DNA from: Opitutaceae bacterium
Lineage (GTDB): Bacteria; Verrucomicrobiota; Verrucomicrobiia; Opitutales; Opitutaceae
Reading direction: 5' to 3'
Length of the DNA stretch: 64,000 nucleotides
Assembly (NCBI GenBank): GCA_050300215.1
Contig: JBNKXG010000001.1
Span: 276,627 to 340,626 of the forward strand
The stretch's first letter is position 1; each line of letters begins with the position of its first letter. The notes below the pieces were generated by a model. The model was not told the origin of the DNA and did no database searches. It saw only the letters and a list, made by a program, of their open reading frames with translations. Shown piece after piece: positions 40,968-56,046 of the stretch. Both the position numbers and the translations under genes were made by a program.

Positions 40968-41337
40968 GCTAACTTCTTTAGTGTGGATCAGGTCTTCAGG
41001 CTCTATCGATACATAGGCTTGGGAGCTTAAGCTCGAAATGCCTTAGGTACTGCACATTCTATGCTTTTTTCCGATATTGAGGAGAAGTCCCTGTTCTTAT
41101 CTGGGGAAGATCTCTCGGTCCTAAACTGGGGCGATGCTTGTTCGTTGTTATGCCGACTTTTTCCGCGAAGCGATTCGAAGAGTTTTCAGTTAGTTCCTGG
41201 AAGGATGCTGGGATGGCATAGGCTCGAGCGCGGCGAAGCGGGCTTGGTCAAGAAGGCCAAGCACCATGCTACAAGCGTGGTTCGCTCGCTTTTGATTAAT
41301 GGCCTTATGGAAGGCCTCGGAGTTGACCGGAGTCCGT

Positions 41338-41559
41338 CTAGCGCAGCCAGACTTGACGCGAGCGGGGGTTGCCCGAGCATTCGAAGTCGAGTCCTTCTTC
41401 GTCGAGGAATTCTTCGAGCTCAGAGACGGAAAAATCGTAGCCATCCTCTTTGGCGGCTGCGACGAATTTTTCTTTCGTTTCGATGACGTTGTACTTCGCT
41501 CGGAGAACCTTGTCGGAACCGCCAGCAAGCAGGAGTTTTTCTACGCTTTCTTTTGACAT
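41338..41559 (-). CDS. Nif11-like domain small protein (possible leader-peptide-type precursor)
   Basis: 73-aa protein: MSKESVEKLLLAGGSDKVLRAKYNVIETKEKFVAAAKEDGYDFSVSELEEFLDEEG-LDFECSGNPRSRQVWLR. The first ~55 aa follow the Nif11 pattern (helical, ...AAKEDGYDFS..EL). Codon usage resembles its neighbours. Confidence 0.6.
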   Translation of the reverse strand: MSKESVEKLLLAGGSDKVLRAKYNVIETKEKFVAAAKEDGYDFSVSELEEFLDEEGLDFECSGNPRSRQVWLR

Positions 41560-41711
41560 GATTTGCTTGAGTTTGAAGCAAACCGGGAAGCAGCGCGTGT
41601 ACCACTCCTAGCGTTTGATCGAATCAGAGCAGCAGTAATTACTCCACTTTATGGATACGATAAGAGTGGTCGGTTGCCGTTTTAGGGGCTATATTTTCGG
41701 GCGAGCAGTGC

Positions 41712-43502
41712 TTAAAGCGTAGCGATGTAGTTTCGCCAGTTGCCGTACTGCGTGACCTCGGTCGCTTCTGCGGTGGCGTAGGTTTCGCAGGAGAAGCCTT
41801 TGACGTGGGTGCCGTCGGCGAGCTCGACGTTGGCGATACCGAGAGGGGCGAGAATCTGGGCGACAAAGGCGGCCCATTGGGATTTGGGCAGATCCCAAAT
41901 CTCCAGTTCGATAGTGGCGCCGTTTTGTGAATCGCGGATCATGCCGGGCTTGGGAGGCGTGGTGCCCGGGAGGGCGAAGAGTCGATAGTGCGGGCTGGTG
42001 GCGGCAGTTCGATTAAAGGTGGCCCCGAGCTCGGTGAGCTGGTGGTTGAGGGGGAGGCCGCTCATGTGGGCGCCGCAGACGGCGATGGGAAGGGAGTCGT
42101 AGGTGGTGGGCTGGAGCTTGGCGTAGACTGTGTGTTCGGTAGCTCCGAGGGGGAGATCGCTGGCCTTTTGTAGTTGGTTGGCGATGACGAGAAGCTTTTC
42201 GTCGTGGAAGGCGGGAGCGATGAGGGTGATGCCGAAAGGCATCTTTTTCGGAGTGAAACCTGTAGGGACCGCGATGGAGGCGAGGTCGAGCAGGTTCATG
42301 AAGTTGGTATAGTATCCGAGGTTTGAATTCAGCTGGATGGGATTGGCCTCGACTTCGGCGATGGTGTAGTGGGTGCCGGCAGTGGGTGTTGCGAGGAAGT
42401 CGACCGAGTCCCAAAGGGGTAGTGTCTCCTGGCGGAAGGCTTGCAGTTTGTAGGAGGCGTCGAAGGCGTCTACCGCGGTGCCGTCGATGCCTTTCTCGAT
42501 GATGGCGCGGGTGACGGGGTGGAGGCTATCAGGCGCTTCTTTGATGAGCTCTTGGATGGCCCAGTAGCGCTCGGCAACCCATGGACCTTCGTAGAGGAGG
42601 CGGGCGGCGGCGAGGAAGGGAGAGAAGTCGATAACTTGGCGCTTGAAGCCGAGGGACTCGAGGCGCTCAAGGGATTTGAGGTAGAGATCGAGGTAGGCTT
42701 CGTCGCCGAAGAATTGGAGTTGCTCCGGTGAAGGCACCCCGAAAGTCATGCCTGGGCGATAGGTGCGGCGCGGTGTATCGAGATTTTGGGGAGTGTGACG
42801 CGAATAGGCGTCGGAAGCGTCGAAGCCTTGGGCGATGCGGAGAGCGCTTTGGGCGTCGGCGGCGTTGAGGGCGAAGATGGAAATGCAGTCCAGCGACTTG
42901 CAGGCGGGGACGAGGCCGGAATTGCTGAGCAGACCGCGGGATGGCTTGAGGCCGACGAGGTTGTTGAAACAAGCCGGGACGCGACCGGAGCCAGCAGTGT
43001 CGGTGCCGAGCGAGAAGGAAACTTGTCCAAGGGCAACGGATACGGCGGAGCCGGAGCTGGAGCCGCCGGGGATGTACTCTGGGTTGAAGGCGTTGCCGGG
43101 AACTCCGTAGGGAGAGCGGACGCCGACGAGCCCGGTGGCGAATTGGTCAAGATTGGTTTTACCGATAGGAATAGCTCCGGCGGCGCGAAGCTGGGCGACT
43201 ACGGTGGCGTCGGATTTGGCGAAATAGCGAAAGTCAGGACAAGCGGCGGTGGTGGGAAGGTTGGCGACGTCGATATTGTCTTTGACGGCGAAGGGGATGC
43301 CGTAGAGCGGGAGTTCCGCGGGGTTCTTGCTTTCGAGCTCGGCGGCTTGGGCGAGGAGGCGTTCAGCCGAGTCAACGCATATCCAGATTTTGGAGTCGCC
43401 TGATTCGATGCGGTCGAGGGTCTCGCGGATGATGTCGGTGGGCGTGAAATCTCCAGCAATGTAGCCTTGGCGGAGGGTGGTAATGTCGAAAGAGAGAGTC
43501 AT
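41712..43502 (-). CDS. Allophanate hydrolase (amidase signature family plus C-terminal AtzF-type domain)
   Basis: 596 aa with the amidase signature GGSSSGSAVSVALG and a conserved KDNIDV. The C-terminal ~120 aa is typical of allophanate hydrolases. It lies next to the urea carboxylase gene. Confidence 0.9.
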   Translation of the reverse strand: MTLSFDITTLRQGYIAGDFTPTDIIRETLDRIESGDSKIWICVDSAERLLAQAAELESKNPAELPLYGIPFAVKDNIDVANLPTTAACPDFRYFAKSDATVVAQLRAAGAIPIGKTNLDQFATGLVGVRSPYGVPGNAFNPEYIPGGSSSGSAVSVALGQVSFSLGTDTAGSGRVPACFNNLVGLKPSRGLLSNSGLVPACKSLDCISIFALNAADAQSALRIAQGFDASDAYSRHTPQNLDTPRRTYRPGMTFGVPSPEQLQFFGDEAYLDLYLKSLERLESLGFKRQVIDFSPFLAAARLLYEGPWVAERYWAIQELIKEAPDSLHPVTRAIIEKGIDGTAVDAFDASYKLQAFRQETLPLWDSVDFLATPTAGTHYTIAEVEANPIQLNSNLGYYTNFMNLLDLASIAVPTGFTPKKMPFGITLIAPAFHDEKLLVIANQLQKASDLPLGATEHTVYAKLQPTTYDSLPIAVCGAHMSGLPLNHQLTELGATFNRTAATSPHYRLFALPGTTPPKPGMIRDSQNGATIELEIWDLPKSQWAAFVAQILAPLGIANVELADGTHVKGFSCETYATAEATEVTQYGNWRNYIATL

Positions 43503-43508
43503 GTGTTA

Positions 43509-43787
43509 TTTGCCCACGAAGGACACGAAGTTCACTAAATCGGGAATGGATTTGGGATGAATGGGTTGCTCTTTTTTTTACCGCAGATGGACGCAGATGG
43601 GGAGGCTTGTGTTTGGTGGCGGTTGTGGGATTGCTCTGATGAGCAAGGTAGCGTGTTGTTGGGTTGTGTTTTTTTGCCTGTGACGGGCACGAATGGGCAC
43701 TAATTGATTTTAAAAGTATGAGTGAGGATTCGTGAGATTGGTGGGTTCACGAAGCTTTCGTTTTTCTTCGTGTACTTCGTGGGCAAA
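43509..43787. repeat. About 280-nt intergenic block bounded by 22-nt inverted repeats (MITE-like)
   Basis: TTTGCCCACGAAGGACACGAAG (43509-43530) pairs with CTTCGTGTACTTCGTGGGCAAA (43766-43787), matching at 21 of 22 positions. The block also contains the 85-nt repeat at 43563-43648. Confidence 0.45.
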
Positions 43788-43790
43788 AAA

Positions 43791-46700
43791 TTACGTTCTA
43801 AGAATTACTAGGTTTTGGCCTTTGTTGGAGGGGGATCCTTCTTGGGTGAGGAGTTGTTCGATGGTGCCGTCGGCGGGGGCGTTGATGTTGATTTCCATCT
43901 TCATGGATTCGACTATGAGGAGTACGTCGCCCTTTTTGACGGTGTCGCCTTCTTGTACGCAGATTTTCCATACGCTGCCGGGGACGTGGCTTTGGATGGC
44001 GCGGCAACCTTCGGGAATTTCGTTTTCTTCGATGGCTCCGCTAGAGAGTTCCTCGGCGACGTAGGTGGCTTGACCGGTTTCGATCCAGCGTTGGCGTTCG
44101 GCGTCGAAGGAGGCTTGTTGGTGGTCCTTGAAGGTCTTGATGTCTGCTTCGTTGTCCGAGAGAAACTTGTTGTACTCGGCGAGATCGAAGGTGGATTCTT
44201 CGACGCGGAGCTGGAAGCGGCCATGGACGAAGTCTTCGCGCATGGTGAGGAGCTCTTCTGAGGAGACTTCGTAGAAGCGGATTTGGTCGAAGAAGCGCAG
44301 GAGCCAGGGCTTTCCTTCCTTGAAGTCTTTGGTTTGCTTGTAGCGGTTCCACATTTGCACGGTTCTGCCGACGAACTGGTAGCCACCGGGGCCTTCCATG
44401 CCGTAGACGCAGAGGTAGGCACCGCCGATACCGACTGCGTTCTCCGGAGTCCAGGTGCGGGCGGGATTGTACTTTGTAGTGACGAGGCGGTGACGCGGAT
44501 CGACGGGGGTGGCGACGGGAGCGCCGAGGTAGACGTCGCCGAGGCCCATGACGAGGTAGGAGGCGTTGAAGAGGATGTCCTTGACGTCCTGGATCGAATC
44601 GAGGCCGTTGATACGGCGGATGAATTCGATGTTTGATGGGCACCACGGAGCGTTTTTGCGCACGGACTCGTATTTTTGGATAGCGAGCTGGGTGGCGGCG
44701 TCGTCCCATGAAAGCGGAAGGTAGACGGTGCGAGTGGGCACCTTCATCTCGGTTATGGCAGGGAGCTCGTCTTCGATTTGCTTGAGGCGGTCGACGAGGG
44801 TGTCGAGCGGGAGCTGCAAGCTTTGGTAGTGGATCTGAAGAGAGCGGATGCCGGGAGTGAGTTCTTGGATACCGGGAATGTTGGCGGACCGGACGGCTTC
44901 CATGAGAGCGTGAGCTCGGAAGCGGAGGTTGAGGTCGAGCTTCATTTCTCCGTATTCGACGAGCAGATACGCGTCGCCGGCGCGGCGGTAGGTGACGGCG
45001 GGGCGGTCGAGGATGGGCTGTTCTTCGATTTGTTCGAGGATGGCGTCATTTAGGCCGAAGCGCGACGCAAGGTCGCTTCCCACGGGAGAGGACGAATCGG
45101 AGAAAACTGTCTCTTGGGCGGCTTCGAGTTTGGTGGCGGTGCTTTGGTCGACTTTGGTGAAGCGGATGGTGTCGCCGGGCTTGAGTTGGCCCATTATCCA
45201 GAGGTCGGCTTTGATGATGGTAGCGGGGCAGACAAAGCCGCCGAGACTGGGGCCGTCGGGGCCGAGGATGACGGGCATGTCGCCGGTGAAGTCGATCGCT
45301 CCGATGGCGTAGGCGTTGTCGTGGATATTGGATGGATGAAGGCCCGCTTCGCCGCCGTCGGTGCGGGCCCACTTTGGCTTGGGACCGATGAGGCGCACGC
45401 CGGTACGGGCGGAGTTGTAGTGCACCTCCCAGTTGGCGGCGAAGAAGGTTTCGATGTCTTCGTCTGTGAAAAAGTCGGGCGCTCCGTGCGGGCCGTAGAG
45501 GACGCGGATATTCCAGTTGTTGGTGTATTCGGGAAGCTGTGACGGGAGGACGGTGGAGAGAGATTGAAGCTCTTGCGCGGATCGCGACGCTAGGTCGCTT
45601 CCCACATGGTGGTGGAAGTGGAGGACGTCGCCGGGGAGGAGGGTGCGTCCGCAGTGTCCTCCGAATTGCCCGAGCGTGAAGGTGGATTTCGAATCGAGGT
45701 AGTCGGGAACGTCGAAGCCTCCTTGGATGGAAAGGTAGGCGCGGCAGCCGTGTTCGGTGATTTTTCCGCAGTCAAGCTCGTCGCCGACGGCGATGGGGAT
45801 GGGCTGCCAGAAGGGTACGGGTTCGCCGTTGAGAGTGGCGTTGGTGGTAGCTCCGGTTAGGACGATGGTGGTGGCGTGGTTGAAGGCCAAGGTAGGGCCT
45901 GTCACCGTAATTTCGATACCGGCAGCGGATTCGGGGTTGCCGAGGATCTTGTTGCCGAGACGGAAGGAGTAGGGATCGAAGGGGCCGGAGGGCGGGACGC
46001 CGATGTCCCAGTAGCCGACGCGTCCGGGATAGTCTTGGATGGTGGTTTGGGTTCCCGCTTCGAGTACGTCGATGGTGCGGGGATGGTAGACGAGGGAGTC
46101 GCAGAACTTGGTGGTGTGCTCGGCGTCGAGAAAAGCGGGAGCGGCGAGGATGTTCTCTAGGTATTCGAGGTTGGTTTCGATGCCTTCGACTCGAGAGTCG
46201 GCGAGGGCTGTAGCGAGCTTTTTGATCGCGTCGTTACGATCGCTGCCTTTGGCGATGACTTTGGAGAGCAGGGGATCGTAGAAGGCGGAGACTTCGGTTG
46301 AGGTTTCGATCCAGGAATCGACGCGTACGTCGGAGGGGAAGTGGACTTGGGTGAGGAGGCCGGATGAGGGTTGGAAGTCCTTATTTGGGTCTTCGGCGTA
46401 GACGCGGGCTTGGATGGCGGCTCCGGTAGGTTTGATGGAAAGCGTATCCAGATCTGGCATCTCGCCCGCGGCTTGCTTGATCATCCACTCGACGAGATCG
46501 ACTCCGGTGACTTCTTCGGTGACGCAGTGTTCGACTTGAAGGCGGGTATTGACTTCGAGGAAGTAGAACTGGGCGGCATCGACGTCGTAGACGAATTCGA
46601 CGGTGCCGGCAGAGCGGTAGTTGACGCCTTTGGCGAGGCGGACGGCGGTATCCAGAAGTTCCTGACGCTGGCTTTCGGAGAGGGCGGGAGCGGGGGTTTC

Positions 46701-47417
46701 TTCGATGACCTTTTGGTTGCGGCGCTGCACGGAGCAATCGCGTTCGCCGAGGGCGATGACTTTGCCTTGGCCGTCGCCGAAGATTTGGGCTTCAATGTGG
46801 CGGGCGCGTTGGACGAACTTTTCGAGGAAGATTCCGGCGTTGGCGAAATTGTTTTGTCCGAGGCGTTTTACGGATTCGTAGGCGTCGCGGAGTTCGATCT
46901 CGGTCCAGCAGAGGCGCATGCCGATGCCTCCGCCGCCGGCGGTGGATTTGAGCATGACTGGGTAGCCGATGCGAGTGGCTTCGGAGCAGGCTTCTTCGAG
47001 CGTATCCACGAGGTCGCTACCGGGGAGGAGCGGAGCGTCGTTGGCGACGGCGATTTCGCGAGCGGTATGCTTGAGGCCGAACTCGATCATTTGCTGAGGA
47101 GTTGGGCCGATGAAGGCGAGGCCTGCGGCTTCGACTTGGGTGGCGAAGTCGGCGTTTTCGGAGAGTAGGCCGTAGCCGGGATGGATGGCTTGGGCTCCGG
47201 TGGATTGGGCGGCGGCGAGGATGGCTGCGGTGTTCAGGTAGCTCTCCTTGACAGGGGCGGGGCCGAGGCGGATGGCTTCATCGGCGAGGTCGACGTGTTG
47301 GGCGAAGCGGTCGGCGTCGGAGTAGACGGCGACGGACTGGATGCCCATCTTGCGAAGGGTGCGGATGATGCGGCAGGCGATTTCGCCTCGGTTGGCTATG
47401 AGAACTTTGTTGAACAC
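43791..47417 (-). CDS. Biotin-dependent urea carboxylase family enzyme (urea or guanidine carboxylase)
   Basis: 1208 aa. The biotin carboxylase N-terminus reads [20 protein letters not shown]. The central region resembles allophanate-hydrolase subunits 1/2 (KipI/KipA-like carboxyltransferase domains). The C-terminal biotinyl motif is IVESMKMEI. Confidence 0.95.
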
Positions 47418-47449
47418 GGTGGTTTGGTGGAGAGTGATTGGGTTGTGCT

Positions 47450-47534
47450 TTTTTTACCGCAGATGGACGCAGATGGGGTGTTTTGTGTTTGGTGGCGGTG
47501 GTGGGATTGCTCTGATGAGCAAGGGGGCGGTTTT
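47450..47534. repeat. Second copy of the 85-nt repeat GGGTTG..TTTTTTACCGCAGATGGACGCAGATGGGG..GTGTTTGGTGGCGGTKGTGGGATTGCTCTGATGAGCAAGG
   Basis: Roughly 90% identical by eye to 43563-43648, in the same orientation. It includes the hairpin TTGCTC-tgat-GAGCAA. Confidence 0.7.
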
Positions 47535-47578
47535 TAGAATTCTTTGTGCCGTTTGCGGTAGAGTACTGTTTTGCTGGT

Positions 47579-48214
47579 TTAGTCCCAGATGAGGGCTTCG
47601 ACGGGGGTGGGATTGTAGGCGTTGCAGGGGTTGTTGAGCTGCGGGCAGTTGGAGATGAGGGCGATGACGTCCATGAGGGCGACCATCTCGACGTAGCGGC
47701 CGGGGGCGGAGATGCCGTCGGCGAAGCTGAGTCCGCCTTCGGGGGTGACGGGCACGTTCATGAAGAAGTTGATGTTGCAGGTGATGTCGCGTTTGCCGAG
47801 GTCGTCGGAGTGGTCGTGGAGGCCGCAGATGAAGGAGTCGCGGCAGGCGTGCATGGGCTCCTTTTCGATTGCGTAACGCATGGTGTTGGATTCGCGGGAG
47901 CAGGCGCCGCCGATGGTGTCGTGGCGTCCGCAGGTGTCGGCGGTGATCTCGAGGAGGGCGTTGCCTTGGCTCGACATGAGCTTGGTGCCGGTGGTGAGGT
48001 AGAGGGCTTGTTGACAGCGGATGGTGTCGCTGGCGGAGTAGCGGTCTACGGGGTCGTGGGCGTTGTAGAAGAGTGTATCCGCTGCTTGGTTACCTTCGAG
48101 GTCGAGGATGCGGAAGGTTTGGCCTTTTTTGATGACGTGGCTCCAGTGGTCGCCAGCTTTGATGACCTGGCGGTAGACGGCGTCGGCGGGATTGAGGGTG
48201 GATTCGGTTAGCAT
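47579..48214 (-). CDS. DUF1989 protein (urea-carboxylase-associated protein 2 / carboxyguanidine deiminase subunit-like)
   Basis: 211 aa and paralogous to the upstream 238-aa protein, sharing DTLFYNAHD.., DT.G.HDT..G.C. It lies immediately upstream of the carboxylase. Confidence 0.85.
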
Positions 48215-48226
48215 GGTGGAGAAATT

Positions 48227-48308
48227 GGTAATTATGAATTATGAAGGATGAATTATGAGGGGACTGGATCGGGGTGGTGTGGACGCGGGCTGAAGCACCG
48301 CGCTACGC
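48227..48308. repeat. AT-rich repeat AATTATGAATTATGAAGGATGAAT followed by a copy of the REP-like element
   Basis: GGTAATTATGAATTATGAAGGATGAATTATGAGGGG lies at 48227-48262, and a related copy at 49037-49072. GGACGCGGGCTGAAGCACCGCGCTACGC lies at 48281-48308. Confidence 0.6.
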
Positions 48309-48314
48309 TTCTTG

Positions 48315-49031
48315 CTAGAAGCGGAGGGTGTTGTAGGTGATGGTGTTTTGGTAGGCTCGCTGGTTCTCGGAGCGGACTTGGAGGCTGGGATCGTCCGGGG
48401 CGACGGGCGCGGCTTCGGTGACGGTGAGCTGGATGGGTTTCGGGCTGTATTGGGGATTTGGATCGAAGGGGTGCGGGCAGGTGTTGAGGACGACGAGGGT
48501 GTCGAGCTCGAAGCGGAGCTCGACGTGGTCGCCTGCTTGGGAATGGTTTTCGACGTAGCTGAGCTTGCCGTCTTCGTCGGCGATCACTTTGGAGAACCAG
48601 TTGATGTTTGGTACGAGGTCGCGTTTGCCGAGGCCCCATTTGGTGAGCTCGATGAGGAAGCACTCTTGGGCGTTGCGGTAAAAGTCGTTGCGGAGGGTTT
48701 GGTAGTCGCCTTCGCCGTATTTGGATTTTACGGACGCAGCGTCGGAGGCGCCGCAGACGGTGTCGTGCCAGCCGCAGGTGTCGGCGGTGATGGAGGCGAA
48801 GAGACGGCCCATGTCGGAGTGTAGACAGTAGGGGGCCTTGAGGTGGAAGATGTATTGGCCTTTGAGAGTGTCGGGCATGTTGTAGCGCTCGTGCTTTTCG
48901 TAGGCGTTGTAGAGCAGCATGCCGACGTTGGCGCCGCCTTCGAGGTCGGTGAGGCGGAGGGTGCGGCCGCGCTTGATGACTTTGGACCACATGCCGGCTC
49001 CGGTGAGGGTTTCTTGATGGATGAGAGACAT
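48315..49031 (-). CDS. DUF1989 protein (urea-carboxylase-associated protein 1 / carboxyguanidine deiminase subunit-like)
   Basis: 238 aa and paralogous to 47579-48214. Its position is conserved in urea-carboxylase-region operons. Confidence 0.85.
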
Positions 49032-49036
49032 TTTTT

Positions 49037-49072
49037 GGAATTATGAATTATGAATTGTGAAGGATGAATGGG
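49037..49072. repeat. Second copy of the AT-rich repeat (GGAATTATGAATTATGAATTGTGAAGGATGAATGGG)
   Basis: It begins 6 nt upstream (in minus sense) of the start of the first DUF1989 gene. The copy at 48227-48262 sits 13 nt upstream of the second DUF1989 gene. Confidence 0.6.
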
Positions 49073-49074
49073 CG

Positions 49075-49521
49075 CTACTTTTGGTGGAGCGGGGGCATGA
49101 TGGTGGAGGAGAGGTTGAGCTTGCCGGTTTTGACGCCTTTGCAGGTGATGAGCTCGTTGGCAATGGCTCGTAGCTTTTGGGCGGGGCCCTGGACGACGAG
49201 GACTTCCATGATGTGATCGTCTTCGAGCTGGACGTGGAGGGAGCTGATGACTTCGGCGAGGTGCTTGCGCTGGATCTTGCTCAGGGTGCCTTGCAGGTTG
49301 TTGCGGCGGGTGCTGTAGAAGAGCGTGATGGTGCCGGCCATGACTTGCTCGTCCTCCTCGGCGCTGGCTTCGATTATCTCGCGGTTGAGAATCTCGGCGA
49401 TGGCTTGGGAGCGGTTGGCGAATCCACGCTGCTCCAGCACGCTGTCGAACTTGGCGAGCACGGAGCGCGGGATGGAGACACTGACGCGTTCTGCGGGATC
49501 TGTCATGTTTTCTTGATTCAT
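49075..49521 (-). CDS. NikR-family ribbon-helix-helix regulator with an ACT-like C-domain (nickel ligands mostly not conserved)
   Basis: The RHH domain reads RVSVSIPRSVLAKFDSVLEQRGFANRSQAIAEILNREI. The C-domain reads ...ITLFYSTRRNNLQGTLSKIQRKHLAEVISSLHVQLEDDHIMEVLVVQG.... An alternative start lies at 49506. Confidence 0.8.
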   Translation of the reverse strand: MNQENMTDPAERVSVSIPRSVLAKFDSVLEQRGFANRSQAIAEILNREIIEASAEEDEQVMAGTITLFYSTRRNNLQGTLSKIQRKHLAEVISSLHVQLEDDHIMEVLVVQGPAQKLRAIANELITCKGVKTGKLNLSSTIMPPLHQK

Positions 49522-49523
49522 AT

Positions 49524-49553
49524 AGTATTACGAATTTAGGAAAACGTAATACT
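49524..49553. promoter_or_regulatory. Perfect dyad AGTATTACG-N12-CGTAATACT, candidate operator of the NikR-like regulator
   Basis: 9-bp perfect inverted arms (49524-49532 and 49545-49553) lie between the GS-like stop (49589) and the regulator start (49521). Confidence 0.6.
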
Positions 49554-49588
49554 TTTGGTTCTGGTTAGGGCAAGCGTTTTTTGGAAAA

Positions 49589-50926
49589 TCAGTAGAGTCG
49601 AGCGTAGCGATCGATTTCCCACTGGCTGACGGTTTGGTGGTATTGGCGCCACTCTTCGCTTTTGTATTTTATGAACTCGTTGCGGAGGTCGGTGCCGAGG
49701 GTTTCTTCGACGAATGGATCGGCGGCAAAGGCGGCTACGGCTTCGTCGAGGGAGCGTGGGAGTTCGCAGATGCCGCGTGCGGCGAGTTGCTCGGGAGAGA
49801 GTTCGTAGAGGTTGTCCTCTTGGGCGTCGCCTGGGTCGAGGTTCTCTTTGATGCCTTGCAGGCCGGCGGCGATGGCGAGGGCGGCGGCGAGGTAGGGATT
49901 GCAAGCGGCGTCGGCGTTGCGGGATTCGACGCGTCCGCCTCCCATGGGTACGCGGAGGGAGTTCGTGCGGTTGTTGCTACCGTAGGAATTGAAGACGGGA
50001 GCCCAGGAGTAGTAGGACATGAGGCCTTTGCGGACGAGGCGCTTGTAGCTGTTGACGGTGGGGGCGAAGGCGGCGCAGAGGGCGGGGCCGTGCTTGAGGA
50101 TGCCGGCGCTGAATTGGTAGCCCAGTTTGGAGAGGCCGAGGCCGCGTGGATCGTCTTTGTCTTCGAAGAGGTTTTTGCCCGTTTTCGCGTCGGCGATGGA
50201 CATGTTGAAGTGGGCGCCGCTGCCGGTTTTGTTGGCGAAGGGCTTGGGCATGAAGGTAGCGACGAGGCCTTCTTCCGCGGCGTATTGCTTGGCCATCATG
50301 CGGAAGAAGATGTAGCGGTCGCACATGGTGAGGGCGTCGGCGTACTTGAAGTCGAACTCGAACTGGGAGTTGGCGTCTTCGTGGTCGAGCGAGTAGAGAT
50401 CCCAGCCAAGGTCGTTGATGGTAGTGGATACCTTGTCGATCCAGGTGTAGCGGTCCATGAAACGCTTCACGTCGTAGCAGGACTTCTCGAGGTTGTCGTC
50501 GTCGTTGGGGATCTCGAGTTTGCCGTCTTCGGTGAGGCGAACGACAAAGAGTTCGCACTCGATGCCGAGGTTGACGGCGAATCCCATGGCTTCGGCTTCG
50601 GCGAGGACTTTTTTGAGGGCGACGCGGGTGTTCACTTCGTAGGGTTGCCCTTTGAAGGTGTTGTCGGCGGGCATCCAGGCGACTTCCGGCTGCCAAGGGA
50701 GTTGGATGATGTGATTGGTATCGGGGAGGGAGGCGATTTCGTCGTCGTTGGGCGACTGTCCGAGTCCGTCGAGGGCGTATCCTGTGTAGAGCTCGGATCC
50801 GGAGGCGAAGTGTTCGAAATGGTCGATGGGTACGAACTTGCCCTTGGGCACGCCGTGGATGTCAACGTAGGCGCCGACGCAGTATTTGACGCCCTGGGCC
50901 TTGAGTTTGTTTTTGAGTTCTTCCAT
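49589..50926 (-). CDS. Glutamine synthetase family protein, type III / GlnT-GmaS-like (445 aa)
   Basis: N-terminus [33 protein letters not shown]...[18 protein letters not shown]. The catalytic domain has [22 protein letters not shown] and [23 protein letters not shown]. The start is the ATG at 50926. The 976-aa ORF-track entry is a spurious upstream read-through. Confidence 0.88.
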
Positions 50927-50987
50927 CTGGTGTTTTGTTCGGTGCGGGGCGAGTTTTTTGCCGCTTGGGCGTTGTTGCTGTTGCGTG

Positions 50988-51014
50988 TGGCCGCTGAGAC
51001 AGCGGCCGCTACCT
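50988..51014. repeat. 27-nt hairpin repeat TGGCCGCTGRGACAGCGGCCGCTACCT (copy 1)
   Basis: GGCCGCTG-aga-CAGCGGCC stem-loop. A near-identical copy (1 mismatch) lies at 57312-57338. Confidence 0.6.
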
Positions 51015-51024
51015 AGGTGGTGGT

Positions 51025-51822
51025 TTAGTTGTAGAATCCATCGGGGGCTCCTGACCATTGGTGGGCGGGCAGGGGCGGCTGTTCGGTTTTTGCTTTCTCG
51101 AGCTTTTCGGCGATGGCGGTGGTCATTTTTTGGAAGAGACGCGCTCCGTCTTCGGCATTGCCTAGGGAAGGGGCTCCGGTGGTGCCGTTTAAGCTTGTCT
51201 GGGAAACTGGATACGTGAATACGAGGCCGTCGGTACGGTCTTCGTCGTCGGCGGAGTTGAAGGCGGCTTGGTCGACGGTGTCCGGGGCGAGGTGGAGCAT
51301 GAGGTCGCACTCGCCTTTGTTGGCGTGGAGGTCGGCGGCGTCTTGGGTGAAGTGGTCCTCGATTTCCGAGTCGATGAAGAAGGTGTTCAGGAAACCTACT
51401 TGGAGGCGTCCCATCAGTTCGATGCGTATTTGATCTACGGCTACACGTATGGGAGCGTCGTTGCCGGCATGGGCATTGACGATGTAGAGCTTTTTCCAGC
51501 CGGTGGCTTCCGCCCATTTGGCGAATTGGACGAGGGTGTCGATGAAGGTCTTGGGCGAGAGCGAGAAGGTGCCCGGCCATTTGGTGGTGTGGCCTCCCGA
51601 GGAGGTGTAGGGCATGACGGGCGCCATGGCGACGTCGGCCTGGGCGCAGGCGGCTTGGCAAAGGGCGGTGGCGATCGTTGTATCCGTATTTATGGGAAGA
51701 GCGGGGCCGTGTTGCTCCGTTGCGCCTAGTGGCAGGACCAAGAGCGAGCTGCGTTCCTGCAGCTGTTTGATCTGCGGCCATGTCAGTTGCTCGATGCAAA
51801 TGCCTGGAAGGGTGGAGCTCAT
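51025..51822 (-). CDS. Creatininase-family amidohydrolase
   Basis: [18 protein letters not shown] (compare the creatininase motif LPVGALEQHG...D), plus IVNAHAGN and LHANKGECD. 265 aa. Confidence 0.85.
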
Positions 51823-51828
51823 GGGCGA

Positions 51829-52728
51829 TTACTCGACGTCGTCCTTGACGTTGGTCATGCGAATGATGGGCAGGTCGTGGTCGGTCGCTTCTTCCTTGGG
51901 ATGGATGAGTTCTTCCAGCCGTTGTTTGGTGGCGAGGAACTCGGGGCTGAGCAGGTGCTCGGGGGTGCGCGGTCTCGGCACGGGGACTTCGATGAATTCC
52001 TGGATTTCGCCCGGATTCGCTTTCAGCACGAGAATGCGGTCGGACAAGTAGATGGCTTCGTCGAGGTCGTGGGTGACGAACATGATGGTGACGTCCACGT
52101 TTTGCCAAATCTGCAGGAGGTGGGCCTGCATTTGGTTGCGAGTGTGCGGATCGAGAGCGCCAAAGGGCTCGTCCATGAAGAGGATTTGCGGCTGGTTGGC
52201 GAGGGCTCGGGCGATGGCGACGCGTTGTTTCATGCCTCCTGAAAGCTGGCTCGGATAGGCTTCGGCGGCGTGGGAAAGGCCGACTAGGTCGATCCATTGC
52301 ATGGCTTCTTGTTCGACGGCACTGCCCGAGCGTCCGTTGACTTCGAGACCGAACATGACGTTCTTCTTGACGCTCAGCCAGGGGAACAAGGTGTAGCCCT
52401 GGAAAACCATTCCGCGGTCGGCGCCCGGGCCGGAAGGGGCGTTGCCGTCGAGGAGGAAGGAGCCGCCGGAGAGGGTTTCCAGTCCAGCCAGCATGCGGAT
52501 GAGGGTCGACTTGCCGCAACCCGAGGGGCCGATGACGGAAATGAACTCGCGGCGATGGACGTTGAAATCGATCGGGCTGAGTACGTTGACGGTCCCCTTG
52601 GCGGTGGTGAAGCTCTTGCTGATGCCTTTGACCTCTAACTTGATCGGGCGTTTGTAGATGTCGGCGAAGCGCGCTTGTACGGCTTCGCTCTGCTCCTTGT
52701 AACTCGGCAGCGTTATGGATTCGCTCAT
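51829..52728 (-). CDS. ABC transporter ATP-binding protein (NitT/TauT family)
   Basis: Walker [10 protein letters not shown], signature [15 protein letters not shown] and Walker [13 protein letters not shown]. Confidence 0.92.
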
Positions 52729-54116
52729 GATTTAGCCTTTCCGTTGAGAGGTTCGGCGTAGACTTTCCGGTCTACTAGCCAGAAGAGGAAGCGGCCGATG
52801 GGGCCGTGTTTCTTGTCGGATGCCTCGGGCGTCCAAGGGAAGAGGTACTTGCGCAGGGACGACAGGAATTGGTCGGTGACGAAGCCTGAAATGCCGATGA
52901 GGATGATGATCGGGAAAACGCTGTCGAAGTTGCGCCAGCGGCCTTGCGTTTCGAGGAATTCGGTGAGGCCGCTCTTAACGCCGATGAGCTCCGCGATTAC
53001 CAGCCAGGTCCAGGCCCAGCCCAGGAGGATGCGGAGGTCGTTGAAGAGATTTGGCGTGATGCCCGGCAGGATGACGCGGCGGATGAGGGTGAAGTTTTTC
53101 GCTCCGAGGGTTTGGGCCGCTTCGAGTAGGGAAGCGTCGAGTTGGCGAGTGGTATTGGCCACGACGAGCACGAGTTGGAAGAAGGTTCCCACGAAGACCA
53201 AGGCGATCTTCGGGGCGTCGTGAGCGAGGAAGACGGCGACCAGCAGGGTGCTGAACGCGGGCGCCGGCATGTAGCGGAAGAAGTCGATGAAGGGCTCGAA
53301 GAGTTTGGAGAAGAAGTCGAAGGTTCCGCAAAGCACGCCGATGGGGACGCCGATCACGGCCGCCAGGAGGAAGCCGAAGAAGACGATGCGCAGCGAATGC
53401 TTGTAGCGCTCGAACATGGACGGCTTGTCGTCGTCGGATGAAAAGGTGAAGTCTTGGAAGCCTTTGATCAGGACCTCGTGCGGAGCGGGCAGGTAGACGG
53501 GATTGGTGGAGACGCCTTGGGGCACGAGTTTTTCCAAGGGGATTTCCGGGAGCAGCTTGGAGTCGAAGGTCGGTGAGCGTTCCGACATGAGAGCCCAGTT
53601 GCGAGTGGCGATGCCCTGGTTTTCGTCGGTGAACTTCACCTTTTTGTAGGGCAATTTTCCTTCGGCGACTCCTTGCCAGACTTGGTAGAGCAAGGCGTCT
53701 TCCTTGGCCTCGTCGCGGGAGAGCCATTGATTGGCGATGGCGGCGTCCGAGATGTGCCGCATGATCTTGAGGTTGGCGCGGCGTACTGCGAAGCCGGAGC
53801 CTTTGATATTTCCCGATTTTCGTTCGGCCAGAATGGCGGCGTTGTCGGACTGGATGGCGGCGACGAACTCCGGGAAGTAGCTCTTGGAAAGGTGGTCGCC
53901 CGCGGTGTAGACGGTGGTCACATCCGAGCGGTCGGCTGAGATGTGCAGCTTGATGTCGGGATGCCAGATGAAACTCGAGTAGCTGACAAAGGCCCAAACG
54001 AGCAGCGGCAGTATAAAAGAGGAGCAGGTCAGGACGAGCCTTTGCTTCGCGTCAAGGTCTTTGCGGATGGCGAACCACGGCCTAGATGCCTTGTTGTTTT
54101 TGTTTGCTTGGGTCAT
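52725..54116 (-). CDS. ABC transporter permease (NitT/TauT family) with a ~190-aa N-terminal extracytoplasmic extension
   Basis: One N-terminal TM is followed by a long soluble segment and then a BPD-transport core (...[27 protein letters not shown]...). 463 aa. 4-nt overlap with the ATPase gene. Confidence 0.88.
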
Positions 54117-54219
54117 GTACGCGTTTCGGAAATCGGGCTCGAGTCAGAGGGTGGGCAACAAGAAGGCGGGCCGGGCTGGGCCCGCCTTCGATTGGTTGAA
54201 GCTTGTATCCAACGAACCG

Positions 54220-55212
54220 TTACTTAACGGACTTGGCGTATTCCAAGGTCAGGCTTGGATCGAGATACTGGGAGGTCTTCAGCGGCTCGGGATAGACGCC
54301 CATGGATACGTTGAACTCGTCTGAAATAGCGGTGGAACCGTAGACGGAACCAAATCCTTCGGCTTCCTTCCAGATTGGAAGCACCTCGTCGAGGCCCAAG
54401 ATGTAGGTGCCGCTGAGGAATGGCTCGTACTCTTCAGGGCTGATGGCTACGCGGCCTGAGAGGATTTCGAGCACTTCGTCGATGTTGTCCTCGTCCTTCA
54501 TGTAGTCGACGATTCGATACCAGACCTTGACGACTTTCATCCAATCGTCGCGGCGCTTTTCGAGACTTTCGGGATCGACGCTCAAAAGGTCGTAGATGAC
54601 GCCAGGAACGTCGGCGGAAGTGAGCACTGGCTTGGAATTGGCGATGGTCTTGAGGGCCTGTCCGGAGTTGGGCTGCCAAGCGCCGATGGCGTCGACGGCG
54701 CCCGATGCGAGTACCTGTGGCGTTTCGTTGGTTGGCGTGTTGACGATGGTAAATTCGGACGGGTCGATGCCGGCGGCTTCGGCTCCCTTTATGAGGAGAA
54801 GGTGTTCCACGAAACCCTCTTCGAGGCCGATCTTCTTGCCCTTGAGATCCTCGAGCGAGTTGAATCCGGGAGCGGCTACGATCATGTCGTTGCCGTTGGA
54901 GAAGTCGTTGATGATGATGCCGACGGAAGGCTTGCCGGTGCCGCCGGTGACGAGGGCGTCGCCGTTGGTCATGGTGACCGCGTCGATCAATCCTGCGGCG
55001 TAGGCGTCCATGGAAGCGACGTAGTCCATCCACTGGAAGTTAACTTCGACGCCTTCCTCTTCGAACCAGCCCTTTTGGATGCCGATTTCCCAGGCGACCC
55101 AGCCTGGCCAGTCGGAGTAGCCGATTTTAAGAGGTTCCGCTTGAGTGAAAGGCAGAGCGGCGAGGAGGGAGAGCCCGGCGAGGGCGCGGGTAGCGAGGCG
55201 AGCGAACTTCAT
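54220..55212 (-). CDS. ABC transporter substrate-binding protein (NMT1/THI5-like, urea-carboxylase-region type)
   Basis: Signal peptide [25 protein letters not shown], followed by [18 protein letters not shown]..., as in NitT/TauT-family binding proteins. Confidence 0.88.
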
Positions 55213-55242
55213 ATGATTTTGGTCGTTCAGGTTTTATTAAGT

Positions 55243-55268
55243 TAATACGAAAAAGAATAATCGTATTA
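55243..55268. promoter_or_regulatory. Dyad TAATACGA-N10-TCGTATTA (core TAATACG-N12-CGTATTA), second candidate operator
   Basis: It lies 31-56 nt upstream of the binding-protein start codon. It has the same core and spacing as the dyad at 49524-49553, giving the consensus TAWTACG-N12-CGTAWTA. Confidence 0.55.
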
Positions 55269-55623
55269 CGATTCTGTCCGACTTTAAGCATTGCGCGCGC
55301 CATCTGCCTGTAATGGTTAGAATCAGGCTTAAACGAGCAAAAATGCGCAGCGGTTTGCCGAATAGGCGTTGAGAAATGATCAAATGAGTCTCCGCTCTGA
55401 AAGCGTCACGAGCTGACGGGCGCGAACATCGAATGTGCTTCAGTATGCCAGCCTGCAGTCGCTGGAGCGGGGGGATCACGTCTTGGACGCGAAGGATATC
55501 GAGCTTGCGATCGTGCGGGAGTATGAGAAAGAAGGGCGACTGGGCTAGGGGTAGGTTAGTGTTTCGCTTGTTGATCAAAAATTCGCTTTAGTTGTCGCTG
55601 TTCAGTCTTACTTCCTAACTACC

Positions 55624-56046
55624 ATGAGTCATTCGCGTAAACTTGAAGAGCTGGCGCTGGCGCTCGATATGTCCAGTGGTTCCGAAGACATTCCTGTTTA
55701 TGTATGCAAGTCGACAGGTGAGATCGTTTACGATGCGGAAGAGTATTCCGGAGAACCGTGCCCCGTTGAAGACATTGAAAACGACAATCGCTACGTGTGC
55801 CTTCCGGACAAGCACGATTTCGATTTGGGAACGCGGCTGGTGTGGCGTTTCGTCGAGCAAGGAATACCGGCATTGGAGCCGAAAGTTCGAAGGATTTTTT
55901 CGAGTCGCGGAGCCTATCGAAGGTGGAAGGATTTTCTGGACGACAACGATTTGCTGGAGGCTTGGTACAATTTCGAAAAGACGGCCCAAAATGAGGCCTT
56001 GCTAGAATGGTGTCGCGCTGAGGGTATCCAAATCGAAGGCGACTAG
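55624..56046 (+). CDS. Hypothetical protein (possibly UPF0158-like)
   Basis: 140-aa acidic protein whose C-terminal part reads ...SSRGAYRRWKDFLDDNDLLEAWYNFEKTAQNEALLEWCRAEGI. The family assignment comes from memory of a similar motif and carries low certainty. Confidence 0.5.
   Translation: MSHSRKLEELALALDMSSGSEDIPVYVCKSTGEIVYDAEEYSGEPCPVEDIENDNRYVCLPDKHDFDLGTRLVWRFVEQGIPALEPKVRRIFSSRGAYRRWKDFLDDNDLLEAWYNFEKTAQNEALLEWCRAEGIQIEGD

Follow-up and report, generated by a model that had tools for sequence, protein, structure and literature searches.

Canonical NikR binds DNA when liganded, following a co-repressor logic, and the nik operator of Escherichia coli reads GTATGA-N16-TCATAC. A second group of described systems relevant here are the guanidine operons of enterobacteria and Vreelandella, in which a guanidine-I riboswitch heads the genes for an importer and cgdAB, whereas an internal guanidine-II riboswitch heads those for the carboxylase and allophanate hydrolase (PMC12186494, PMC12508155). 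According to a 2025 review, no guanidine receptors other than riboswitches are known, and guanidine-binding transcription factors remain undiscovered (PMC12186494). We analysed a stretch of 64,000 nt (64 kb) from an Opitutaceae bacterium (Verrucomicrobiota; contig JBNKXG010000001.1), in the following called the window. It contains, on the minus strand at 49075..49521, an open reading frame of 148 amino acids encoding a NikR-family regulator without the nickel site. Taking all observations together, we lean, if only slightly, towards a nickel-site-less NikR that represses one or more guanidine-assimilation operons and is most likely released by guanidine or a very close metabolite.

Fold, nickel-site positions and distribution of the regulator

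The protein consists of a ribbon-helix-helix (RHH) domain (residues ~11–56), a NikR_C/ACT-like domain (60–138) and a C-terminal tail, I-x-P143-P144-L-H146. A first-pass annotation made from the sequence alone had described a NikR architecture with RHH and ACT-like domains, and Pfam, phmmer and AlphaFold2 with Foldseek all bear this out. Pfam assigned residues 62–137 to NikR_C (PF08753, E-value 1.5e-22). Among the NCBIfam models, NF003381 (“NikR”) scored 126 bits, above its cutoff of 105, and NF002815 was borderline (83.4 versus a cutoff of 83). TIGR02793 (nikR) remained below its cutoff (74 versus 175 bits), as did NF002169 and NF001884. In phmmer searches, the regulator aligned with Pyrococcus horikoshii NikR (2bj1) at an E-value of 2.6e-28 and 41% identity, essentially ungapped, and the alignments to E. 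coli NikR (1q5v) and Helicobacter pylori NikR (2ca9) were essentially ungapped as well. The RHH region pairs with residues 2–45 of E. coli NikR, placing R12 at the conserved β-strand Arg (R3 in E. coli), S14 at T5 and S16 at T7.

The AlphaFold2 monomer model, computed from a 29-sequence alignment, reached a mean pLDDT (predicted local distance difference test) of 84.8 and shows the RHH helices followed by a βαββαβ C-domain. Its best Protein Data Bank matches in Foldseek were all NikR proteins, and its C-domain superposes at a root-mean-square deviation of ~1 Å on 2y3y and 1q5y, which are nickel-bound NikR C-domains. The regulator thus has its two-domain architecture and fold in common with canonical NikR (1q5v/2hzv; H. 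pylori 2ca9/6mrj; P. horikoshii 2bj1). An RHH antitoxin of the HicB/CopG-like type was rejected because HicB_lk scored 19.8 bits, less than its cutoff of 27, a NikR_C domain is present and a toxin neighbour is absent.

For mapping the nickel ligands, we used the high-affinity site of E. coli NikR (H76, H87, H89, C95) as reference. In the regulator, R85 stands at the position of H76, H96 at that of H87, Q98 at that of H89 and I104 at that of C95. Hence, one of four ligands is kept (H96), or one of five if the second-shell residue H62 is counted, which corresponds to T71. In E. coli numbering, the regulator differs from canonical NikR by H62T, H76R, H89Q and C95I. The first-pass annotation had arrived at the same four residues (R, H, Q, I) by eye; the phmmer alignments to the three crystallised NikRs reproduce them exactly, so that the four ligands are not restored by a proper alignment to NikR structures and the manual alignment was not shifted.

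We then compared residue conservation between 120 members of the clade to which the regulator belongs and 71 canonical (HHHC) NikRs. The canonical nickel-site positions are 99–100% conserved in the latter, including His at the position of H62 in 99%, whereas in the clade they vary and are never Cys. Among orthologues verified by their gene context, the five positions read QRQQV, ERHLT, NYHHT, RYHHM or HHHHS, among others. Because these positions vary freely in such orthologues, their shared function cannot depend on them. We are highly confident that the regulator does not use the canonical nickel site.

Of the named relatives, the closest are proteins of Pelagicoccus spp. (Verrucomicrobiota), annotated as “nickel-responsive transcriptional regulator NikR”. 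Down to ~50% identity, the 120 best homologues all lack Cys at the position of C95; their ligand patterns are RHQT, RHQM, RHQI, RHLT, HHHT and others. An exhaustive search over 50%-identity representatives yielded 1231 NikR-family clusters at E ≤ 1e-3. The canonical site is absent from all of the top ~28, with HHHC proteins setting in at about E = 3e-27. In a rough neighbour-joining tree of sampled 50%-identity representatives, 66 of the 68 Cys-less sequences form one clade without any Cys-containing member inside. Scanning one genome per species, we counted at least 582 genomes with a gene for a relative; the taxa among the matches listed include Verrucomicrobiota, Methylophilaceae, Thiobacillus, Parvibaculum, other Gammaproteobacteria and Kiritimatiellia. 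The clade therewith spans Verrucomicrobiota, Beta-, Gamma- and Alphaproteobacteria and Kiritimatiellia. Even a much more divergent member with no ligand left (P0140, pattern R-N-L-S) keeps the arrangement of ATP-binding cassette (ABC) transporter genes, regulator, two DUF1989 genes, carboxylase and allophanate hydrolase.

Judged by these alignments and the tree, loss of the nickel site is a trait of a monophyletic clade and not a one-off decay. The phylogenetic distribution of the subclade beside carboxylase loci, which the first-pass annotation had proposed to inspect, gave a monophyletic Cys-less clade with shared synteny across several phyla. We rejected the possibility of a degenerate or pseudogenised NikR since the clade is large and conserved and has its own signature residues and conserved operators.

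These signature residues, conserved in the clade and without counterpart in canonical NikRs, are Q39, E43, M61, E90, S94, E100, M105, Q111, P113 and C127. In the 120 clade members, E90 and S94 are conserved to 100%, E100 to 99%, C127 and His96 to 97% each and His146 to 82%. The I-x-P-P-L-H tail is likewise conserved across the clade, while canonical NikRs have no such extension. Following the i, i+2 rule, S94, H96, residue 98 and E100 would lie on the face of strand β3 that lines the old nickel site. Three further positions correspond to E30 (Q39), D34 (E43) and Q118 (C127) of E. coli NikR, which we take as the residues forming the interdomain K+ site of the E. coli NikR–DNA complex. All three are altered in a conserved fashion across the clade, which sets it apart from canonical NikR. 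The region of the old nickel site or of the K+ site could hold a small cation, e.g., guanidinium.

Operators, promoters and the guanidine carboxylase cluster

Two NikR-type operator boxes were located in the window, in agreement with the two dyads reported by the first-pass annotation. Box 1 (GTATTAC-N14-GTAATAC, 49525..49552) lies 3 nt upstream of the regulator's ATG. It is the core of a perfect dyad, AGTATTACG-N12-CGTAATACT (49524-49553), which is equivalent to GTATTA-N16-TAATAC and matches the degenerate motif GTATKA-N16-TMATAC perfectly. Box 2 (55242..55269, minus strand; GTAATAC-N14-GTATTAA in minus-strand reading) precedes the ATG of the gene for an ABC transporter substrate-binding protein by 29 nt and has one mismatch to GTAWTAC-N14-GTAWTAC.

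We scanned the window and 80 fetched loci of orthologues for GTATKA-N16-TMATAC, allowing at most one mismatch. With the spacer of 16 we obtained 64 matches, compared to one to three each for spacers of 14, 15, 17 and 18 and five in shuffled DNA. The design of two hexamers 16 bp apart is common to canonical NikR operators and those of the clade. In the orthologous loci, the sites are located just upstream of the regulator gene, typically 3–4 nt before its ATG, or alternatively before the gene for the ABC substrate-binding protein, which is the operon head in Proteobacteria.

Box type and protein sequence covary. Where Ser takes the place of E. coli T5, as in the window, the regulators are accompanied by GTATTA boxes (56 T-type, no G-type and seven mixed loci), and where they have Thr, as in E. 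coli, by GTATGA boxes (10 G-type, one mixed and four poor T calls with two mismatches; Fisher's exact test 2.5e-9, not corrected for phylogeny). The same β-strand residue as in canonical NikR appears to read operator position 5. This protein–DNA covariation is good evidence for binding of the boxes in the canonical NikR manner, and DNA recognition by the clade is accordingly predicted to be canonical still.

The target promoters of the clade are predicted to be of the σ54 type, another difference from canonical NikR. Using the motif TGGCAC-N5-TTGCW, with GG and GC in register and 10 nt apart, we found in ~30 loci an element ending 3–18 nt upstream of the box. Many loci have such an element with no or one mismatch, and perfect consensus sequences occur in several (L046, L052, L065, L068, L072). 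In the window, a σ54 promoter-like element, TGGCGCGCGCAATGCT (55287..55302, minus strand), with two mismatches, is situated 17 nt upstream of box 2, and the same distance was observed in a Pelagicoccus relative (L003). The element TGGCGCGCGCAATGCT implies NtrC/RpoN-type nitrogen control of guanidine uptake, which would apply to this verrucomicrobial genome. A candidate σ54 element upstream of box 1 was not accepted, as it was only a match with three mismatches inside the glutamine-synthetase-like coding sequence. The scan for σ70 promoters and terminators around either box, which was uninformative, found none. Position of the box just downstream of the σ54 promoter, over the transcription start region, fits repression and not activation, and an operator position fitting repression is shared with canonical NikR. 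From this we infer that the regulator probably acts as a repressor.

Directly downstream of the regulator gene follow, all on the minus strand, two DUF1989 genes (48315..49031, UAAP1 type; 47579..48214, UAAP2 type), a biotin-dependent carboxylase gene (43791..47417) and an allophanate hydrolase gene (41712..43502; TIGR02713, 789 bits). This is the gene order that had been given by the first-pass annotation. The DUF1989 pair scored above the cutoffs of TIGR03425 and TIGR03424 (UAAP1/UAAP2); such pairs are the subunits of carboxyguanidine deiminase, according to passages of PMC11410670 and PMC12186494 that cite Schneider 2020. We searched the 80 loci for homologues of the window's neighbouring genes. 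Two DUF1989 genes (cgdAB) lie directly after the regulator in 72 of them, in several phyla, and most exceptions are contig ends. The carboxylase was found in 55 and allophanate hydrolase in 44 loci, and both follow cgdAB where contigs reach far enough. Nickel transporter or nickel-enzyme genes are absent from the recurrent neighbours in these 80 neighbourhoods; in place of the nickel uptake and nickel enzymes of canonical NikR, the clade has the guanidine carboxylase pathway next to it.

Family models designate the carboxylase as urea carboxylase. Palatinszky et al. reported that guanidine carboxylases have Asp at the positions 1584 and 1330 of the Kluyveromyces lactis enzyme, with 1330 separating them from urea carboxylase (PMC11410670). 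Aligned with urea carboxylase and amidolyase of K. lactis (3va7, 5i8i), the carboxylase in the window has D709 opposite K. lactis N1330 (GAIDFTGD versus GAINFTGD) and D961 opposite D1584. The Asp form is present in every readable carboxylase adjoining a clade member, while one sequence in L033 and two fragments in L071 were not cleanly readable. To judge from these residues and from the guanidine-II riboswitches in orthologous loci described below, the pathway is a guanidine carboxylase pathway rather than one for urea. Of the urea/guanidine pathway named in the first-pass annotation, the guanidine part therefore stands and the urea part does not. The sole Asn form (GAINFTGD, urea-carboxylase type) belongs to a second carboxylase in L018 (18021-20423, minus), on the opposite strand. 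There, a separate carboxylase adjoins the regulator, so both carboxylase types may coexist in one genome.

That the protein is a dedicated DNA-binding regulator of the guanidine carboxylase cluster can be stated with considerable confidence. The earlier proposal that a NikR-fold regulator was re-purposed and linked to the carboxylase pathway gained strong support from the clade, the synteny, the operators and the protein–DNA covariation.

In the window, we found no Rfam family at gathering score over the entire 64 kb and none at E ≤ 5 over 41000–56000; riboswitch control was therefore rejected for this genome. The final Rfam scan was also without a riboswitch of any kind in all seven verrucomicrobial loci, and guanidine-I, -III and -IV riboswitches were found in none of 21 further loci scanned with Rfam. 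In this Rfam scanning, 7 of 14 proteobacterial loci possess a guanidine-II (mini-ykkC) riboswitch immediately upstream of the carboxylase gene, and a pattern scan added three more loci (together L033, L044, L047, L052, L065, L069, L070, L071, L077 and L079). It lies between the second DUF1989 gene and the carboxylase gene, at ~11.9–12.5 kb in the locus, or at 2429–2479 in L077. In these loci, the protein regulator and the riboswitch probably act on one operon.

The resemblance to the operons of Raoultella, Klebsiella and Vreelandella is close. The guanidine-I (ykkC) riboswitch of the latter stands at the corresponding regulatory site ahead of the genes for the ABC importer and cgdAB, and an internal guanidine-II riboswitch precedes the carboxylase gene, as in the proteobacterial NikR-like loci. 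They differ in that no guanidine-I riboswitch was found in the NikR-like loci scanned, and in that the RNA aptamer is matched here by a protein, a candidate repressor that would act on the DNA of a σ54 promoter and for which guanidine binding is putative. The proteobacterial loci have the same layout, with the σ54 promoter and the NikR box standing in for the guanidine-I riboswitch.

Mode of control and candidate effectors

According to the mechanism we propose, a NikR-derived tetrameric repressor with retained fold and DNA recognition would occupy the two 28-bp boxes (GTAWTAC-N14-GTAWTAC) of the window. At box 2 it would sit just past the σ54-type promoter ahead of the ABC importer genes, and at box 1 it would abut its own start codon, ahead of cgdA, cgdB and the genes for guanidine carboxylase and allophanate hydrolase. 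The σ54 promoter would provide the nitrogen-limitation input and the NikR-like protein the pathway-specific one. Most likely, guanidine in its free form (guanidinium), or else a metabolite of the pathway very close to it, would bind to the remodelled C-domain or to the remodelled interface of the two domains, upon which the repressor would be released. The NikR-like protein would thereby fill the role that the guanidine-I riboswitch holds in the enterobacterial and Vreelandella operons.

The fold, the loss of the site, the clade, the synteny, the operators, the protein–DNA covariation, the adjacency to σ54 elements and the guanidine signature of the carboxylase are computational findings. Repression, the direction of the response and the identity of the effector belong to what we infer here, the last from context only. 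For guanidine as the effector, we consider the case nearly balanced, with a tendency towards the doubtful side. Somewhat more tentative is a wider suggestion, that the clade is the first protein-based guanidine sensor, in which the metal and cation sites of a nickel metalloregulator were remodelled for guanidinium, leading to release from σ54 promoters. As part of this suggestion, candidates for a guanidinium site are Arg85 at the His76 position, the invariant Glu90 and Glu100, and the K+-site residues E30/D34/Q118 changed to Gln/Glu/Cys. A comparable principle is known from Lrp/AsnC-type and other regulators that combine a small DNA-binding domain with an ACT/RAM-like βαββαβ sensor: in their oligomers, the ferredoxin-like sensor domain takes up a small nitrogen metabolite where subunits meet, and DNA binding changes as a result; the proposed sensing would match it. 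They have a helix-turn-helix domain instead of RHH and show no sequence relationship to the clade, which is clearly NikR-derived.

Several points weigh against a repressor that is released by guanidine. An inducer role would require that the co-repressor logic of canonical NikR is inverted. In some clade members, as many as four His remain at the former site (HHHHS/HHHHT), and the clade-conserved Cys127, His96 and His146 may leave room for a non-canonical metal site. The σ54 element of the window has two mismatches to the motif, and no promoter was recognised upstream of box 1. Moreover, the guanidine-II riboswitch already senses guanidine in the proteobacterial operon, so the protein could sense something else.

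This last point leads to the alternative that survives best, though we regard it as unlikely, namely that the ligand of the ACT-like domain is some other metabolite, of the pathway or of nitrogen metabolism. It could be urea, carboxyguanidine, allophanate, a substituted guanidine imported by the ABC transporter, or glutamine or arginine as a co-repressor signalling nitrogen sufficiency. ACT-like domains often bind amino acids, and creatininase-like and type III glutamine synthetase (GS-III) genes are co-regulated in 35–36 of the 80 loci. With guanidine sensing at the carboxylase covered by guanidine-II in Proteobacteria, the protein may add a different input; however, known operons of the same layout use guanidine-I together with guanidine-II, so this redundancy is no argument against guanidine. 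A second sensor of nitrogen sufficiency would itself be redundant, as σ54 already gives the nitrogen-status input, and no partners other than cgdAB and the guanidine carboxylase are invariant throughout the clade.

A nickel-sparing switch appears rather improbable. Here, a relocated, non-canonical metal site (e.g., Cys127, His96, His103, His146) would sense nickel or another metal, and the ATP-costly, nickel-independent carboxylase route would be repressed when nickel is available for a nickel-dependent guanidinase and urease. For both guanidine and urea, such nickel-dependent routes of breakdown are found in nature (PMC11410670, PMC12623156). The switch would keep the canonical logic, with the metal-bound form binding DNA and repressing, to which the box position fits, and it could draw on the clade-specific Cys127 and on His96 and His146 with the conservation given above, as well as on the four His at the old positions in some members. 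Yet the thiolate ligand Cys95 is missing in every clade member, His62 is lost, and the other old ligand positions, His87 included, become Q, N, R, L or S in an identical gene context. Neither His103 nor the His87 position nor His146 is invariant, and no nickel transporter or nickel-enzyme gene recurs near the loci.

Very improbable is a DNA-binding protein that has no effector and acts as a constitutive auto-repressor or in an architectural role, with a C-domain serving only tetramerisation and a box occupancy set only by its own level or a protein partner: the unconstrained old ligand positions and the autoregulation implied by box 1 abutting the start codon would suit it, but Q39, E43, M61, E90, S94, E100, M105, Q111, P113, C127 and the PP-x-H tail are strongly conserved, and several of these residues map to the former nickel and K+ sites, indicating a constrained functional site beyond oligomerisation.

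In the literature searched, no paper described this clade or connected proteins of the NikR family with operons for guanidine or urea carboxylase; two mentions of NikR alongside urea carboxylase were unrelated, and so was one in a paper on metformin hydrolase. Within a known family of regulators, the clade is a functionally new variant, which databases annotate as a nickel regulator, and it is a strong candidate for the first guanidine-responsive protein switch of gene expression. With defined operators and the tractable hosts Methylobacillus, Methylovorus and Thiobacillus, the question of a guanidine-binding transcription factor becomes testable. The NikR family, regarded as nickel-specific, holds a large sister clade that lost the metal site and kept the DNA code. 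If the proposed mechanism is true, this would be a clear-cut instance of a family changing its effector while retaining operator recognition, and a protein counterpart of the guanidine-I riboswitch across several phyla. At least hundreds of genomes label the genes of the clade as “nickel-responsive regulator NikR”, which would mislead reconstructions of nickel regulons. For environmental guanidine use, σ54 and a specific repressor would together govern the assimilation of guanidine nitrogen in Verrucomicrobiota and methylotrophs, and with guanidine confirmed as effector, the protein could serve as a guanidine biosensor.

Further genes of the loci

Looking upstream of the regulator, the window contains on the minus strand the genes of the ABC transporter and two further enzymes. 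The substrate-binding protein (54220..55212, present in 46/80 loci) is NMT1/SsuA-like and distantly matches TIGR03427, a model named “putative urea ABC”. It is followed by the permease (52725..54116, 43/80 loci) and the ATPase (51829..52728, 55/80 loci). The permease comprises 463 amino acids, of which only residues 256–418 form the transport domain, with an N-terminal extension of ~230 amino acids. Typical permeases of this ABC family have ~250 amino acids and no such N-terminal extension.

Between the ABC transporter and the regulator lie the genes for a creatininase-family amidohydrolase (51025..51822, 35/80 loci) and a type III glutamine-synthetase-family ligase (49589..50926, 36/80 loci; TIGR03105, 642 bits versus a cutoff of 470). 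Their products might process a substituted guanidine or capture released ammonia. A role of such genes in guanidine metabolism is not described in the guanidine papers cited.

Other recurrent neighbours in the 80 loci are a Rieske oxygenase, a TIM-barrel isomerase-like protein, a polysaccharide deacetylase-like protein and a Gcw_chp outer-membrane protein, none of them related to nickel. In some verrucomicrobial loci (L002, 5322-6767 and 9077-9925; L031, 7441-8328), extra genes are inserted between the ABC genes and the regulator, encoding a Rieske ring-hydroxylating oxygenase α-subunit, a xylose-isomerase-like TIM-barrel protein or a polysaccharide-deacetylase-like protein. These inserted genes may represent add-on steps for substituted guanidines.

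Finally, the 43-nt spacer in the window from the regulator's stop codon to the first DUF1989 gene harbours a tandem direct repeat, GAATTATGAATTAT / GAATTGTGAAGGAT, at 49038-49065.

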